DNA of 64,000 nt, from the NCBI GenBank assembly GCA_963777955.1, contig CAVZSQ010000019.1, positions 352,001 to 416,000 on the forward strand. Direction: 5' to 3'. Both the position numbers and the translations under genes were made by a program. A model generated the notes under the pieces. It made no database searches, was not told the DNA's origin, and worked only from the letters and a program-made list of their open reading frames with translations. This DNA is from Calditrichia bacterium (GTDB taxonomy: Bacteria; Calditrichota; Calditrichia; JAJRVZ01). Below, in pieces: positions 5,450-36,503 of the stretch; the first letter of the stretch is position 1; each line of letters starts with the position of its first letter.

Positions 5450-6193
5450 ATGGCTTTACAACATTTTTTCGAACAGGAAAAACATACCCGCGATTATCTG
5501 TTACCTTATTTTCAGAAATATATTCCCGATCTGCCGCACTGTAAAGTACTGGAGATCGGTTGTGCCGAAGGCGGATTTCTTAAAGCACTGATTCAGCTCG
5601 GGATGGATGCACGCGGAATTGAACTGAGTGCTGCCCGGGTAGCTATTGCTCTTAAACACACTCCCCCTTTACCCGTGCAGGAGGGTGATATCACCGATCC
5701 GCATATCTGCAAACAAATCGGCGCACAATTTGATCTGATTGTCATGCGCGATGTGCTCGAACACATTCCCAATCGGGAAATCACGTTTGAAAATCTGCGG
5801 ACTTTGCTCAGACCTGCCGGCTATCTCTACATCACTTTTCCGCCGAAATACTCCGCCTACGGCGGCCATCAGCAGAATGCAGGTTCAGCGCTAAAATTAA
5901 TACCTTTTATTCACCTGTTACCTGCAGCGGTAGTAAAAAAAATAGGATTCTGGCTGAGGGAAAAATCCCAAATACCCGAACAGATTTTACAAATTTACCG
6001 GAACAGTATATCCATTCGTGAATTTGAGAAACTCTGTGTCAGGTTTGACTTCGCGTTTAAAATCAAAGGATTGTTTTTTTCACGGCCCATCTTTAAAAGC
6101 CGCTATAAACTGCCGGTTATTCGTTGCCCCAATCTGCCCGTGGTCCGCGAATTTTTTGCCAGCGGTTGTGAATATTTACTGCAAAAAAAATAA
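5450..6193 (+). CDS. Class I SAM-dependent methyltransferase
   Basis: VLEIGCAEG motif I, FDLIVMRDVLEHI, LLRPAGYLYI. Confidence 0.85.
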   Translation: MALQHFFEQEKHTRDYLLPYFQKYIPDLPHCKVLEIGCAEGGFLKALIQLGMDARGIELSAARVAIALKHTPPLPVQEGDITDPHICKQIGAQFDLIVMRDVLEHIPNREITFENLRTLLRPAGYLYITFPPKYSAYGGHQQNAGSALKLIPFIHLLPAAVVKKIGFWLREKSQIPEQILQIYRNSISIREFEKLCVRFDFAFKIKGLFFSRPIFKSRYKLPVIRCPNLPVVREFFASGCEYLLQKK

Positions 6194-7075
6194 TTCAGAA
6201 TCCGGGTCCTTTTCAGCTGCCTGGATTTTAGCAGCTTCCCAGGCTAAAATAACTTTTTTCCGCAGCGGTCCTCCGCCATAATTGCCACTGTTCCCTTCCT
6301 TGCGGATTACCCGGTGACAGGGGATGAGAAATGATACCGGATTGCTGGCAATGGCAGTCCCGACAGCCCGCGCTGCGCCGGGATATCCGATCATGGCCGC
6401 CAGGTCCTCATAGGCCAGTACGCAACCCTGAGGAATACGCAATAGTGCTTCCCAGACCTTAAGTTGAAAATTTGTGCCCTGCAGATGTAAATGAAAGGGC
6501 TGATCACTTTTCCAGGAATGGGGTTGGAAGATCCGTTGCAGCAGTGGTTTCAATTTATCTTCCTGCTCATGAAGTTCAGCCTCAGGCCAGGATCTGCGCA
6601 GCAGGCTGATATATTTTATCCGGTCTCCCACCGCTATAAAATACAGGGCGCAAATTCCCCTGGCTGTGACGGCTAATAAACATGTACCGAAGGGTGTAGG
6701 CAAGAATCCATAGGTAATTTTTAATCCGGCCCCCTGTGCTTTAAATTCTCCCGGAGTGACCGCTTCACACTTTACAAAAAGATCGTGCAGACGCCCGGGT
6801 CCGGATAAACCACTAGCGTAGGCTGCGTCTAACAGGTTTTTTGATTGGCGCAGTACCGTCTTGGCGTATTCCTTGGTCATGAATTGCAGGAAACGTTTCG
6901 GACTGATGCCGACCCAACGCTTGAACATTCTCTGAAAGTGGAATTCACTTAAACCGGCCTGGTGAGCCAGTTGTCCCAATTCGGGCTGCTGGCGGAAATT
7001 TTTGCCCAGATACCTGATGGTTTGTTCGATACGTAAGTAATCGGTTGATTGCCGGCTGAGATCATATTTTTCCAT
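6176..7075 (-). CDS. Ada-like AraC HTH plus methylated-DNA-[protein]-cysteine S-methyltransferase
   Basis: LSEFHFQRMFKRWVGISPKRF HTH; GTNFQLKVWEALLRIP; ARAVGTAIASNP; IPCHRV active site; no N-terminal Zn domain. Confidence 0.92.
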   Translation of the reverse strand: MEKYDLSRQSTDYLRIEQTIRYLGKNFRQQPELGQLAHQAGLSEFHFQRMFKRWVGISPKRFLQFMTKEYAKTVLRQSKNLLDAAYASGLSGPGRLHDLFVKCEAVTPGEFKAQGAGLKITYGFLPTPFGTCLLAVTARGICALYFIAVGDRIKYISLLRRSWPEAELHEQEDKLKPLLQRIFQPHSWKSDQPFHLHLQGTNFQLKVWEALLRIPQGCVLAYEDLAAMIGYPGAARAVGTAIASNPVSFLIPCHRVIRKEGNSGNYGGGPLRKKVILAWEAAKIQAAEKDPDSELFFLQ

Positions 7076-7139
7076 GCTTTTTCCTTTCACAATGATCTCA
7101 AACTAAAAAAAGAAAAAATGATAACCAACCCGATTCTTG

Positions 7140-9003
7140 CTATTCGTACAAGATCATATTTTGTACATACAGATCCTGAAAGTCGGCGCGGCCGGCCAAC
7201 TCTACAAAGCGAGTGCTCGCGGCCAACCAGTCAACCTGTTTCAATTGATCCTGATCGAGCAGAATCCTGCGCGCCCCTTCCAGCGAGGCATTCCCGATAA
7301 AATGAATCCGGTTAAGATCGATTGCGGGTACCAACTTCAAATCGACCGCTGTCCGCGGACGGATAAAGTTACCAAAAGCACCGGCCAGATATACATCTTC
7401 GATCGCCAGCGGTTGAATCCCGGCCAATTGGCATAACACTTGCCAGGCCGAAGTGATTGCAGATTTAGCCAGTTGAAAAGCACGGATGTCCGTTTGGGTC
7501 AGATATATATTTCTTTTTGCTCCCTGCAGCACACCTTCAATCAGCAAGGCATGTTCTCCTCTGTACAGTCCCATTCTCTGCCGGTAAAATTCTATTATTT
7601 CCGCAGTATCGAGGTCGCTTTGTTCATTCCATTTCCCGGTCGACTTTATTATTTTTTTCTGTATCAGTACATCGATTAAATGAAATAATCCACTGCCGCA
7701 AATTCCCCGGGCCGGTTCATCATCGATCGTGTCAACTAATAACTCGCTGCCCTGCCAGTGCGCATCATAGATCGCACCTGACTCAGCACGCATGCCGAAA
7801 CTGATAGAAGCTCCTTCCAGGGCCGGACCGGCCGGGGAGGAAGCGGTCATTCGAATTGAATCTGTTTCTACCACCACCTCGCAATTCGTACCGATATCGA
7901 TCAGTAATTTGGATTTCTTATCCTTCTGCCCAAATCCGGCCACCAGCATATCAGCCAACACATCGCCACCTACAAATCCTCCTAAATTTGGTGTAATCAA
8001 TATATTAGCCCCTGTACTGACGGCCAGGCCCAGATCTGCCGCCCGCTCTTTTCTCAACTCTTTAAAAACCGGGGTATATGGTGCCAGAGCCAGTGATTGC
8101 GGATTGATACCAAGAAATAAGTGGTTCATACCTGCATTCCCGCTCAAAGTCATGAGATACACATTATTCGTAGCCACTTGATGAATCTTGCACAATTCGG
8201 CTACCAGACTGTTTATACCCTGGATAATGACCTTATGCAAATGTTCCAAGCCATCTGCCTGTTGGGAAATATAGGTGAGACGTGAAATCAGGTCGGAACC
8301 AAACCTGGCCTGGGGGTTGATCGAAGCAGCGATATCGATCGTTTCCCCCGACAGTAAATGATGCAAGCTGACCACCACTGTGGTTGTGCCCAGATCTATA
8401 GCCAGGCCAAACGCCTGTTCAACCGTATTCCCCCCTTCAACATCGATGATTTCCTGATCCATAACTGTGACCGTAACTTGATAGTCATTTTCACGCAAAA
8501 CTTCAGGCAACCTTCGTAATACGGGCAAAGAAACAGTGGCCCGGATCTGATATTCCCTTTCGATTTCCTCCTGAACCAGTTGAATATCGCATTTTAAATT
8601 CTGCAGACCTTCGGCGACCGGCAATTTTAGAAAGTATTTTTTTACCGGTGGTCGTATCGCAATTTGTTCCGTCACGGATGTCTTTCAAACCGCTCAGATG
8701 GTTCAGTCTGTTTTCATCGGGAATTAATACCGTACTTGACTGGCCGACAATACTCATACAGGACAGACGCCAACCCTGCTGGATTTCCTGGGGTGTGAAG
8801 AATAACCTGTCCTGATAAGTCGGATCCGGGTACCAATCCATAAATTGAACGGCACATTTGCCACAGGAATGGTTGCCACCACAAGGATATAACAGGTGCA
8901 GATTTAATTCTTCGAATACTTTTTTAAGAGAAACAGGAGATGGAAAAGTATGTTTGATCTTGTCTGGCAGGATCTCAATTTCGAGTGCTTTATTCGCTTT
9001 CAT
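7140..9003 (-). CDS. ASKHA-domain (DUF4445/RACo/RamA-like) protein with N-terminal 2Fe-2S ferredoxin; one frameshift near 8670
   Basis: CGGNHSCGKC...GWRLSC in ORF 8503-9003 joins ORF 7140-8675 carrying GLAIDLGTTT, IDIGTNCE, AGPALEG, GICGSG, AGAFGN, IGNASLEGA. Confidence 0.88.
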
Positions 9004-9028
9004 TATACGATTTGAGAACCAGGCTGGC

Positions 9029-9460
9029 CTATTGCTGCTTTTGGCTTTCCGACTTTTTGCTGACTAAGGCCAGAATATGAAGATTGATTAATTTGTTTTG
9101 TGGATCATTTGTATGTACCCTGATGATCTTGTGAATTTTATCTCTCTTATTTTTTGTATTGAGAGATACCTCCACCTTGCCACTGTCACCCGGAACAACC
9201 ACTTCTGAACTCAGAAGTACTGCCGTACAACCTCAGCCGGGCTCCAGGCGGGTTATACGCAGCGTATCATCACCGGTATTCTTGAATTTAAAAACATGAC
9301 CGACCAGGATTCCTTCAGCCAGCTCGCCAAAATTGAACTCTTCCTGATCAAATATTATTCTGGGCGCATGTTTTGCTGTCTGATCGGATTTGGATTGGGC
9401 ACAAGCCGGTAAGGTTAACGCCAGAGCGATCAATAGAATAGTGTTGAATTTATTTTTCAT
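9029..9460 (-). CDS. DUF1573-domain lipoprotein with in-frame TGA (9235-9233), candidate selenoprotein (U-G-C motif), 143 aa
   Basis: Lipobox-like LTLPAC; FNFGEL...HVFKFKNTGDDTLRITRLEPG-TGA-GCTAVLLSSEVVVPGDSGKVEV...KIIRVHTNDPQ; the frame stays open for 67 codons after the TGA to TAG at 9029. Confidence 0.85.
9195..9235 (-). promoter_or_regulatory. Putative bacterial SECIS hairpin immediately 3' of the in-frame UGA
   Basis: Minus strand: UGA GGUUGUACG GCAGU ACUUCUG AGUU CAGAAGU GGUUGU; perfect 7-bp upper stem (9201-9218) with loop AGUU ~22 nt from the UGA. Confidence 0.7.
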
Positions 9461-9701
9461 ATTGTCTCGATTTCTAAAACTTCCAGACTGCTGCCTAATT
9501 CCGAACAGGGGTTAAATCGTTGTTTTAATAAAAATAATTTAGAAAGTGATCAGTTGCAAGAGAAAGATAATCTATCCCCGGCTCCATACTGATGATCAGG
9601 TGATCATGCCGGGAGCTCAGCTATATTTCAGGAACTTGAGATCCAGGTTCAGAAATGATAAATAGTGTTCAGCTTTTACTAAAATAATCCGAAATATATA
9701 G

Positions 9702-12700: not shown

Positions 12701-13727
12701 CAATGATCTGTCCTCCATTCATAAAGCCTGCGAAAAAGCAATCGGCTTAACTAAACAGATACTGGCCTTCAGCCGTAAACAAATTTTTGAACCCCAGATC
12801 ATTGATATCAATACAGCCATCTATGATCTGAATATCATGTTGAAACGGCTTATCGGCGAAAATATTACCATCGAAACTGCGCTCAAAGCCGGTTTGCCGG
12901 CCATCAAAGCCGATCCAGCCCAACTGGAGCAGGTGCTGATCAACTTGATTATCAATGCCCGCGATGCAATAAACGCCCAGACTAATCCTGACAACGAAAG
13001 AAAAATCACCATCAAAACTGATTACGAGGAATTAGACCGGAACTTTACTATTAAGTATCCAGGCAGTCTGGCCGGACCGCATATTCTGATCATTATTCAG
13101 GATACCGGCATCGGCATCAGCGAAAAGATCATCAATAAAATATTCGAACCTTTCTTCACGACTAAAGAAATAGGTAAAGGCACCGGTCTGGGACTGGCCA
13201 CAGTATATGGAATAATCAAGCAAAATAACGGCAGCATCTGGGCAGACAGCGAACCCGCTAAAGGCAGCCGTTTTAAGGTATACTGGCCGGTCACTACTGA
13301 ATATATCGCCACGGTCAAAACCGAAAAGGAAAATTCCGGTGAATATCAGGGTAAGGAAACTATTCTGCTGGTTGAAGATGATGCAGCCGTGCGCGAATTC
13401 ACTAATACCGCCCTGCAGAACTTCGGTTACCGTGTATTTGAAGCCGGTAATGGCAACCAGGCCCTGAAACTGATTGCTGATACCAAAATTAAAATAGATC
13501 TACTGATCACCGATCTGATTATGCCGGAAATGAACGGAAAAGAATTAGCCGAAAAAATATCTGCCTCACTGCCCCTCTCTTCCATCCTGTTTACTTCAGG
13601 TTATACCGAAGATTATATTGTACGCAGCGGTGAACTGGAAGCCGGTATACACTTTTTACAGAAACCTTATTCCATGAATTTACTGGCCCAGAAAGTCAGA
13701 GATATCCTGGATAAAAGTCATACCTGA
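9702..13727 (+). CDS. Hybrid sensor histidine kinase: degenerate REC-PAS-GAF-4xPAS-HisKA-HATPase-REC
   Basis: Repeated 'DITERK' PAC ends, GAF (GKGVTGKVA...SEITVPI), LAGGIAHDFNNLL H-box, NLIINARDA, EPFFTTKEIGKGTGLGL, C-terminal LLITDLIMPEMNG; start could be 9753. Confidence 0.95.
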   Translation: MKTLFNSTTSLSTKGILMSDALHTLLLVNSKQHTDLILKQLRQSGLIIMPRQIKSDRSLLAALHARKWDLVIIADRFTSLSNKKILPILAQNGQSPAPVFIIFEQINHQKIVSAIRAGASDCLSWNDLGILPASVKKELSKSGKLNKPLHRKPEQLDSHEKYLQLFNGIPIGLYKSSAGGKLIDVNNALVQILGYPDKQTLLATRASSLYVNPQDRKKWKKQLEQEGTIFANEVQFYRYDQSKIWGRESTRVIQNKPGKTVYYEGAIEDITQNKQTEKELRRRIREQIVLNTIAANASEVEDEESLYKHTTAIIRDLLFPDSFGIMLIDETEGVLRLSHSYHTHPNDSRKLVVPLGKGVTGKVAVTGIARRIADSRLDPDYLRINTEMRSEITVPIRVHQKIIGVMDAESQQPDLFTESDERILSTLAQQLAGTIERLRVVKALKNEHQFLSGVISGNPAIICGIGIDGLTRFINPVGEKITGYSEYEMQRKDWWKTFYPGKEHVQVKKLFAELGKGDVKDYEMTLTAKNNEKRIISWSSMNHLDKKGKLFETIFFGNDITDRKSAEEALIESEDRLRRIAEASFEGIAFTDGGIIIDANPQLAEMFGYALSEIIGKDIIDFVAPDQREMVTQKIKSGYKKTYEHKAIKKDGTAFFVEVRGGQISYRGRYVRVTAVRDITERKRVENELYQSKQMLELVLDNIPQRVFWKDRTFHFLGCNKPFARDANLGSTLDIIGKDDYELSWKDTANLYREDDRAVMQSNTPKLDYEEPQSKPDGEPLWLRTNKIPLHDQQGKVIGVLGTYEDITEKKRIEDALRKSENKFRQLFQNANDAIYLWKLNDADQIEKLLEVNNIACDMLGYSKDELQALTPLQINYPGSVEKSSQSVQKIISQGKYTYEMIHRHKNGTPIPVEINAHVFTLGEERVILSVTRDIRERKNAEEEYKRLQLQLVQTQKLESIGTLAGGIAHDFNNLLTVINGHSEMALTKIGPQAQDNIVYNDLSSIHKACEKAIGLTKQILAFSRKQIFEPQIIDINTAIYDLNIMLKRLIGENITIETALKAGLPAIKADPAQLEQVLINLIINARDAINAQTNPDNERKITIKTDYEELDRNFTIKYPGSLAGPHILIIIQDTGIGISEKIINKIFEPFFTTKEIGKGTGLGLATVYGIIKQNNGSIWADSEPAKGSRFKVYWPVTTEYIATVKTEKENSGEYQGKETILLVEDDAAVREFTNTALQNFGYRVFEAGNGNQALKLIADTKIKIDLLITDLIMPEMNGKELAEKISASLPLSSILFTSGYTEDYIVRSGELEAGIHFLQKPYSMNLLAQKVRDILDKSHT

Positions 13728-36152: not shown

Positions 36153-36503
36153 TTGAAGAAATCAGAAACTGTATTCAGCCAGATCATCAGGAAAAAAGTC
36201 AAAGCCGAGATCATTTATGTAGACCGGCAGATTGTCGCCTTTAAAGATATTAATCCCCAGGCTCCTGTACATGTGCTTATTGTGCCCAGAAAGACGATAG
36301 CTACTTTATCCGAGGTGACGTCAAAAGATGCTTTGCTTTTGGGTAAAATGATGTTAGTGGCAAAGAAAATTGCCCACCAGCTGAAACTGGCTGATGATGG
36401 ATTCCGCCTGGTTCTGAATCAGGGCCGCTTCGGCGGGCAAACTGTTTTACACCTGCACTTTCATCTGCTGGGCGGCAGAAGAATGATGTGGCCGCCGGGA
36501 TGA
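36153..36503 (+). CDS. Histidine triad nucleotide-binding (HIT/HinT) protein
   Basis: AFKDINPQAPVHVLIVP, GGQTVLHLHFHLLGGR..WPPG. Confidence 0.95.
   Translation: MKKSETVFSQIIRKKVKAEIIYVDRQIVAFKDINPQAPVHVLIVPRKTIATLSEVTSKDALLLGKMMLVAKKIAHQLKLADDGFRLVLNQGRFGGQTVLHLHFHLLGGRRMMWPPG

Follow-up and report, generated by a model that had tools for sequence, protein, structure and literature searches.

OS_HP2 was one of six new selenoprotein families found in the metagenome of the Olavius symbionts, where it was represented by two sequences and was listed with no cysteine (Cys) homologue in the published tables (Zhang and Gladyshev 2007, PMC1976440). A 2008 paper on the Global Ocean Sampling (GOS) data lists it as "OS_HP2, pfam07610, UxC" (PMC2398784), and review tables carry a DUF1573 domain-containing protein, PF07610, with the motif UGC, in which U stands for selenocysteine (Sec) (PMC9312934, PMC13188914). 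Here a locus of this kind is described in a window of 64,000 nucleotides (nt), meaning by this the whole stretch of DNA that was analysed, which covers positions 352,001 to 416,000 of contig CAVZSQ010000019.1 in the Calditrichia bacterium assembly GCA_963777955.1. Between positions 9460 and 9029 on the minus strand there is very probably one intact gene, read through an internal UGA, for an exported DUF1573/OS_HP2 "U-G-C" selenoprotein of 143 residues. Since the predicted protein combines a PF07610 domain with U76-G77-C78, it has the two features by which the literature defines OS_HP2, and on its sequence it belongs to this family, which is not new. Like the published members, it places U-G-C where the family otherwise has C-G-C, and it was predicted by computation. 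A literature search returned no relevant paper linking names beginning with Calditrich to selenoproteins.

The open reading frame (ORF), as called, starts with the ATG at 9460 and ends after 75 amino acids (aa) at the TGA 9235-9233. Past this codon the same frame remains open for 67 further codons, up to the TAG at 9031-9029, and the ATG of the downstream gene is found at 9003, 25 nt beyond the TAG. With the TGA taken as U, the read-through product has L-E-P-G-U-G-C-T at residues 72-79, and PF07610 is matched straight across the TGA with 77.6 bits (cut-off 26.1, E 7.4e-22). An earlier note, made from the letters of this stretch, had proposed a hidden DUF1573 protein, recoded at a UGA and carrying a U-G-C motif, that ORF callers had missed. 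Its coordinates and counts for the cut ORF, the open frame, the stem and the TGA were all found to be correct, and the conservation and the decoding machinery presented below agree with the proposal itself. The positions of the features are collected in Table 1.

Table 1. Features of the predicted selenoprotein gene, in window coordinates.
Feature	Position	Strand	Description
Complete selenoprotein gene	9460..9029	-	143 codons plus TAG 9031-9029; predicted signal peptide followed by one DUF1573 Ig-like domain
Predicted signal peptide, about residues 1-21	9398..9460	-	Basic start, hydrophobic core, L-P-A-C-A-Q; Cys20 codon 9403-9401
DUF1573/HYDIN-VesB-like Ig domain	9077..9355	-	Residues 36-128; PF07610 and PF22544 matches
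UGA codon 76, very probably read as Sec	9233..9235	-	Occupies the place of the first Cys in the DUF1573 C-G-C-T motif
Cys78 codon TGT, partner of Sec76 in U-G-C	9227..9229	-	Invariant in 23/23 sequences (A2) and in 33/33 codon columns
SECIS hairpin	9200..9219	-	Core 9217-9202, 6 bp, with loop A-G-U-U at 9211-9208

The position of the TGA is shared by nearly every close homologue. When 41 related genomes were searched in all six frames, 39 match rows were obtained, and among the 20 best rows 19 hold exactly one in-frame TGA and the remaining one, from genome G011, holds none. By widening the search to 86 genomes of the phylum at E <= 1e-15, 35 rows were recovered in 34 genomes, of which 34 rows have one TGA and the lone exception is again G011; two of the 35 rows additionally count a TAA, and in neither is there a stop among the 40 residues ahead of the Sec codon or the 45 that follow it. 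The 34 TGA-bearing homologues come from 33 genomes, one of which (G025) has two copies, and all of them carry the TGA at the identical column, reading U-G-C-T in 33 cases and U-G-C-A in one (L062). At this threshold the matches are spread over families f1 (6 of 9 genomes), f5 (23 of 26), f7 (2 of 2) and f8 (1 of 1), with a match in one of the ten genomes of f3, being the Cys form; families f2, f4 and f6 gave no matches in the 86-genome search. The frame downstream of the TGA is kept as protein, the Sec forms being 33-62% identical to the window protein over the full length in a 23-sequence protein alignment (A2), in which N61, U/C76, G77, C78 and T79 are invariant. Given that the TGA, the downstream frame and the hairpin described below are kept in 34 of 34 TGA homologues, the arrangement is more than chance.

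The same column also has a Cys counterpart, as expected for a Sec/Cys pair, and the alternation of TGA with TGY that the earlier note had suggested looking for is indeed present: beside the 34 TGA rows out of 35, the protein of G011 (L036) has Cys at the Sec column, as do the more remote two-domain paralogues L038-L048 (11/11). The single-domain database proteins P0009-P0019 all read C-G-C-T. No selA match was found in G011, a genome that is 98% complete in one contig, and selA scored above the cut-off in all 18 TGA-bearing genomes of the 41-genome search. A contig search outside the phylum gave four loci, of which two from Bacteroidetes metagenome-assembled genomes and one from a Desulfobacterales metagenome-assembled genome are all Cys forms; the fourth was rejected as a spurious match of 17 residues.

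Directly 3' of the UGA there is a hairpin that fits the bacterial selenocysteine insertion sequence (SECIS) as it is defined in published accounts, that is, a stem-loop immediately 3' of the UGA with a G in the apical loop (PMC9312934, PMC1976440), here within the loop A-G-U-U. A 15-nt spacer (9232-9218) separates the UGA from a core of 6 base pairs (bp), which in the window is extended by an A-U pair (9218/9201) and a U-G wobble (9219/9200), giving eight pairs in the RNAfold fold. Counted with the A-U pair, this is the perfect 7-bp stem with a 4-nt loop (9218-9201) of the earlier note, which had put the loop about 22 nt from the UGA; the stem is preceded by 14 nt, and the loop begins 22 nt past the UGA. 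In a 34-sequence alignment of the TGA forms (A3) the core pairs form in 32-34 of 34 sequences, and the conserved element consists of 6 bp and a 4-nt loop, beginning 15 nt past the UGA. One stem pair, 27-38, changes on both sides, being UA in 26 sequences, CG in 7 and UG in 1, and unpaired in none, counts that owing to kinship do not represent independent events. Its covariation score was matched by 2 of 500 column shuffles, sliding the partner cuts pairing from 91% to 31-47%, and the C-G form is found in f1 (L031), f5 (several) and f7 (L064).

The hairpin is also visible, and more strongly than in the covariation, in the choice of codons, which was compared in 33 sequences (L062 was found later). 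At positions +7, +8 and +9 after the Sec codon, Leu is CTG, Ser is AGT and Ser is TCA, each in 33 of 33 sequences, and Leu+6 is CTT in 27 and CTC in 5; outside the hairpin, the invariant Gly+1, Thr+3 and Pro+14 and the near-invariant Gly+15 use three to four codons each, and Cys+2 uses both. Through the hairpin, codons 82-86 are fixed nucleotide by nucleotide, which imposes the peptide L-L-S-S-E/G on the protein. The Cys form L036 reads L-L-D-N-A at that place, and the hairpin was not found in it. With the core pairs, the frozen synonymous sites and one covarying pair, the conservation of the SECIS-like hairpin among homologues, which the earlier note had named as a check, is borne out. An element of this kind inside the coding sequence, 15 nt past the UGA, would recruit SelB bearing Sec-tRNA(Sec).

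Two further arrangements were observed among the TGA-bearing sequences. L037 (G007:C100) is an ORF of 344 aa for a multi-domain DUF1573 protein that also has a TGA at the U-G-C-T column; it differs downstream (V-A-E-Y-D-K), and its predicted hairpin is different and weak. Genome G025 carries two TGA copies, L064 and L081 (G025:C2), the second copy having T-V-L-S-S-G and a shortened stem in which the C-G variant of the covarying pair is retained.

The machinery for Sec insertion is complete in this genome, where selA, selB, selC and selD, the genes that the earlier note had named as a check, are all present. The tRNA-Sec scores 65.4 bits, above the gathering score, and is given the anticodon tca by ARAGORN. 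Both selB (318 bits) and selA, which adjoins it (507 bits), are above their curated cut-offs, and selD (405 bits, also above its cut-off) is located on the same contig as the window, about 4 kb ahead of its first base (C19:347112-348038). Among the 41 tRNAs that ARAGORN found in the whole assembly, the tRNA-Sec has the sole UCA anticodon, and the tRNA-Trp has CCA. The frame that contains the selD match is open over 748 aa, without a stop inside it, and judging by this length SelD probably forms a fusion with another domain; beside the match, at C19:346910-346993, stands a weak tRNA-like hit (36.9 bits).

On these sequences, UGA76 is very likely decoded as selenocysteine. Several results weigh against this decoding and have to be set against the evidence above. 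The seventh pair of the stem, A-U in the window, forms in just 16 of 34 sequences, and the covariation comes from one pair, given that variation in the other core pairs is slight, and nil in three of them, which makes them uninformative. The folding energy is unremarkable (z = -0.82 over 76 nt and -1.47 over 46 nt), and out of 200 shuffles of the 46-nt stretch 18 reached an equally good fold. A search of Rfam gave no matching family, the best E-values being 0.76 and 1.9 for unrelated families. In public sequencing data no run contains more than 0.21 of the words sampled from the stretch. Among contigs from X1, X2, X4 and X10 compared with 8400-9600, codon 9233-9235 is covered just by the end of one contig that is about 86% alike and stops within 9233-9238, which neither confirms nor denies the TGA, and the sole contig from an RNA library spans 8839-8985, which is the neighbouring gene and not the selenoprotein gene.

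If the TGA were a nonsense mutation or a base-call error, nothing or just a stub of 75 residues would be made. Such an event could be suspected because the assembly is probably wrong or mutated in at least one other place, 550 nt from here, where a frameshift of one base splits the RACo-like gene described below, and because the reads gave no confirmation of 9233-9235. Independent errors cannot, though, account for a TGA that recurs at one column in every one of 34 close homologues, which come from 33 genomes, and neither the 67 stop-free codons that are conserved as protein, nor a hairpin kept at synonymous sites, nor the confinement of the TGA form to genomes with selA would be expected from a pseudogene. 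The conservation of codon, frame and hairpin effectively refutes this explanation, whose probability is close to nil. It is very improbable as well that the UGA is read as another residue (Cys, Trp or Gly), whether through a suppressor tRNA, a near-cognate tRNA or a code change across the whole genome. What could favour it is that no tRNA-Cys (GCA) was found by ARAGORN in this 91.8%-complete assembly, so that a further tRNA could have been missed; the tRNA-Cys gene is probably unassembled rather than absent. In the window, however, TGA is an ordinary stop, as the earlier note had pointed out: it ends 10 of the 35 stop-to-stop ORFs of at least 250 codons, including those at 13727 and 56085, it also closes the ORF ending at 36503, and it terminates three of the orthologues themselves (L030, L032 and L037). 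The only tRNA with the UCA anticodon is the tRNA-Sec, the full Sec pathway is present, and plain read-through has no use for a hairpin conserved at the distance of a SECIS. Taken together, conservation, hairpin and machinery rule out that the gene is a pseudogene, that a base was miscalled or that the code is changed in general, which leaves selenocysteine as the very probable reading of this codon.

Regarding the protein itself, an AlphaFold2 model built on the 23-sequence alignment has a mean predicted local distance difference test (pLDDT) score of 89.8 and takes the form of a seven-strand beta sandwich. In this model the loop that joins strands 67-73 and 79-83 contains U76-G77, and C78 comes just ahead of the latter strand. 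The mature protein is thus modelled as a single immunoglobulin (Ig)-like beta sandwich, with Sec76-Gly-Cys78 in the loop between the third and fourth strands. The closest solved folds are 2qsv, an uncharacterised protein from Porphyromonas gingivalis, the PapD-like domains of HYDIN and the Ig domains of VesB/VesC, and the fold search as a whole returned generic PapD/ASH/HYDIN-like Ig domains and no functional lead. A helix is placed by the model at residues 2-21, corresponding to the predicted signal peptide, and a hydrophobic leader is present in 17 of 17 small orthologues, from which we can safely infer that an N-terminal signal peptide exports the protein from the cytoplasm.

The earlier note had spoken of an exported lipoprotein, with LTLPAC as its lipidation site. 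Export stands, and the lipoprotein part is not secure. The lipobox consensus at the end of a signal peptide is [LVI][ASTVI][GAS]C, in which Pro at position -2 is unusual, and L-P-A-C has a Pro at exactly this position; A-C-A followed by Q would serve signal peptidase I equally well. A Cys closes the signal peptide in 3 of the 17 small orthologues (L019, L020 and L026). Lipidation at Cys20 is, on this sequence, possible.

The function that fits this architecture best is a redox one, to which we would give about an even chance. By analogy, Sec76 and Cys78 may form a reversible selenenylsulfide, and the protein may be an extracytoplasmic thiol/selenol redox carrier or reductase, in which Sec76-Gly-Cys78 would cycle through an Se-S bond outside the cytoplasm. 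Most selenoproteins of known function are described as oxidoreductases in the GOS paper (PMC2398784). Support from gene context comes from the methionine sulfoxide reductase MsrB (SelR, PF01641), whose gene, with a hydrophobic leader, is found directly downstream and on the same strand in 10 of 34 loci (L024, L026, L032, L035, L072, L074, L076, L078, L082 and L085). A gene for a MatE transporter is located upstream in 8 of 34 loci, and the MsrB and MatE neighbours are all in family f5.

Several findings speak against a redox partnership. Scanned around 17 loci were 47 of 63 candidate ORFs, together with the 3 neighbours in the window (of the rest, five belong to L027, which nearly duplicates L023, and 11 are short and lie mostly on the opposite strand), and no conserved operon partner emerged, the neighbours being otherwise unrelated from locus to locus. 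The MsrB neighbour is limited to f5 (four genera) and may be one inherited arrangement, and the single SelR match in the window's own genome has an N-terminus with no hydrophobic leader. A sequence search of solved structures returned 2qsv alone (E = 0.0013), in whose alignment the Cys pair is missing, and none of the solved relatives has the motif. A more specific form of the redox proposal can be drawn by analogy, in which the L-L-S-S-E clade, found, among the genomes searched, in this phylum only, would be a periplasmic selenol/thiol electron carrier built on an Ig fold, a functional counterpart of the N-domain of DsbD, that in one family would reduce the exported MsrB encoded next to it. 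Because the MsrB neighbour is confined to f5 and the SelR match of this genome is leaderless, this partnership is kept as a minority reading and is a long shot. If it were true, it would provide the first function for OS_HP2, an orphan for 20 years, and would name the reductant for extracytoplasmic repair of methionine sulfoxide in anaerobes.

The main alternative accepts the same selenoprotein and assigns Sec76-Gly-Cys78, perhaps with His55, to the binding of a soft metal, for instance Cu(I), Hg or Zn; the protein would then chaperone or scavenge metal in the periplasm. Binding of Cu(I) by C-x-C motifs is familiar from known chaperones, and His55 is near-invariant, being kept in at least 90% of the 23 sequences. 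Catalogued selenoprotein families also include metal handlers, namely MerT-like proteins, E1-E2 ATPases and CopZ-like proteins, in the review tables (PMC9312934, PMC13188914). Yet no metal-handling Pfam family appeared among the 47 neighbour ORFs of the 17 loci or the three window neighbours, and metal binding is considered rather unlikely, the thiol/selenol redox function being preferred.

The genes next to the selenoprotein gene in the window deserve a short description. No terminator was found between the selenoprotein gene and the RACo-like gene 25 nt downstream, a neighbour that is shared only with the same-genus relative L020. The RACo-like gene (7140-9003, minus strand) encodes a 2Fe-2S domain, the RACo linker, and the middle and ASKHA domains. 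A frameshift of one base near 8682-8685 (S-G-L-K/T-S-V-T) divides it into ORFs 9003..8503 and 8675..7140. L020 reads the gene in one frame, homologues at 86-89% identity have 619-620 aa, the window's copy is recorded as 494 aa, and one base at 8682 is missing from a public contig (X1, record 2) that matches in all other respects; the break is probably an assembly indel or a strain-specific mutation. Named homologues of this protein come from Calditrichales (45%), Caldithrix abyssi (41%) and Calditrichaeota (40%), mixed with Marinimicrobia and others, a picture that agrees with the phylum Calditrichota but does not prove it. Further on, at 6176-7090 (minus strand), there is an Ada-like fusion of an AraC-type helix-turn-helix domain and a methylguanine-DNA methyltransferase DNA-binding domain, which has the ordinary Cys form, P-C-H-R; its methylguanine-DNA methyltransferase-type Ada-like family has selenoprotein members in review tables (PMC9312934, PMC13188914).

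In the public protein collection the clade is present only as pieces, that is, stubs of 75-85 aa and one tail of 57 aa. The 75-aa stubs are P0020, which is the window's own, and P0021-P0025 at 77-89% identity, P0006 is an 85-aa stub ending in L-E-P-G, and P0026 is the 57-aa tail. The main value of the present case is for annotation: the NCBIfam model NF041425 misses the clade, so automatic pipelines will go on cutting the gene short. It is, in addition, a very clean case in which both the synonymous codons and a peptide of five residues are set by a SECIS element, and it lends itself readily to testing programs that look for selenoproteins. To a specialist the finding will come as no surprise, and its usefulness lies in annotation and in SECIS dual coding.

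Regarding the known family, NF041425 ("OS_HP2 family (seleno)protein") was the only significant NCBIfam match of the window protein, aligned over 2-97 of its 98 positions. The score of 85.3 bits lies below the curated cut-off of 100, a point against an unqualified assignment. By treating U as C, 21 of 30 proteins were scored on this model (nine two-domain Cys paralogues were left out), and the 17 small Sec orthologues reached 57.7-89.4 bits, with L037 the highest tested at 89.9. By these scores the window clade is a sister clade outside the curated NF041425 subfamily. According to the published account, the first OS_HP2 members came from deltaproteobacterial symbionts of worms, and a Cys homologue was not known, whereas the window clade occupies about four families of one phylum and has a Cys form. 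It adds to OS_HP2 a well-sampled, predicted exported single-domain member with a Cys counterpart.

The other relatives are the Cys-containing DUF1573 proteins (PF07610), single- and two-domain, which share with the window protein the fold, the invariant N61, the C-G-C-T motif and the signal peptide. They differ from it by having Cys in place of Sec, no hairpin past the motif, and a variable peptide after C-G-C-T-A, in contrast to L-L-S-S-E in the window clade. Beyond this family, the N-terminal domain of DsbD is an Ig-fold redox domain, and C-G-C or C-x-C motifs serve as redox shuttles in proteins such as Erv2. DsbD has no sequence or family relation to the window protein and is not among the top 50 fold matches listed. 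The resemblance to DsbD and Erv2 is one of functional analogy only, in that each would offer an extracytoplasmic beta sandwich or tail with a close redox pair that relays electrons.

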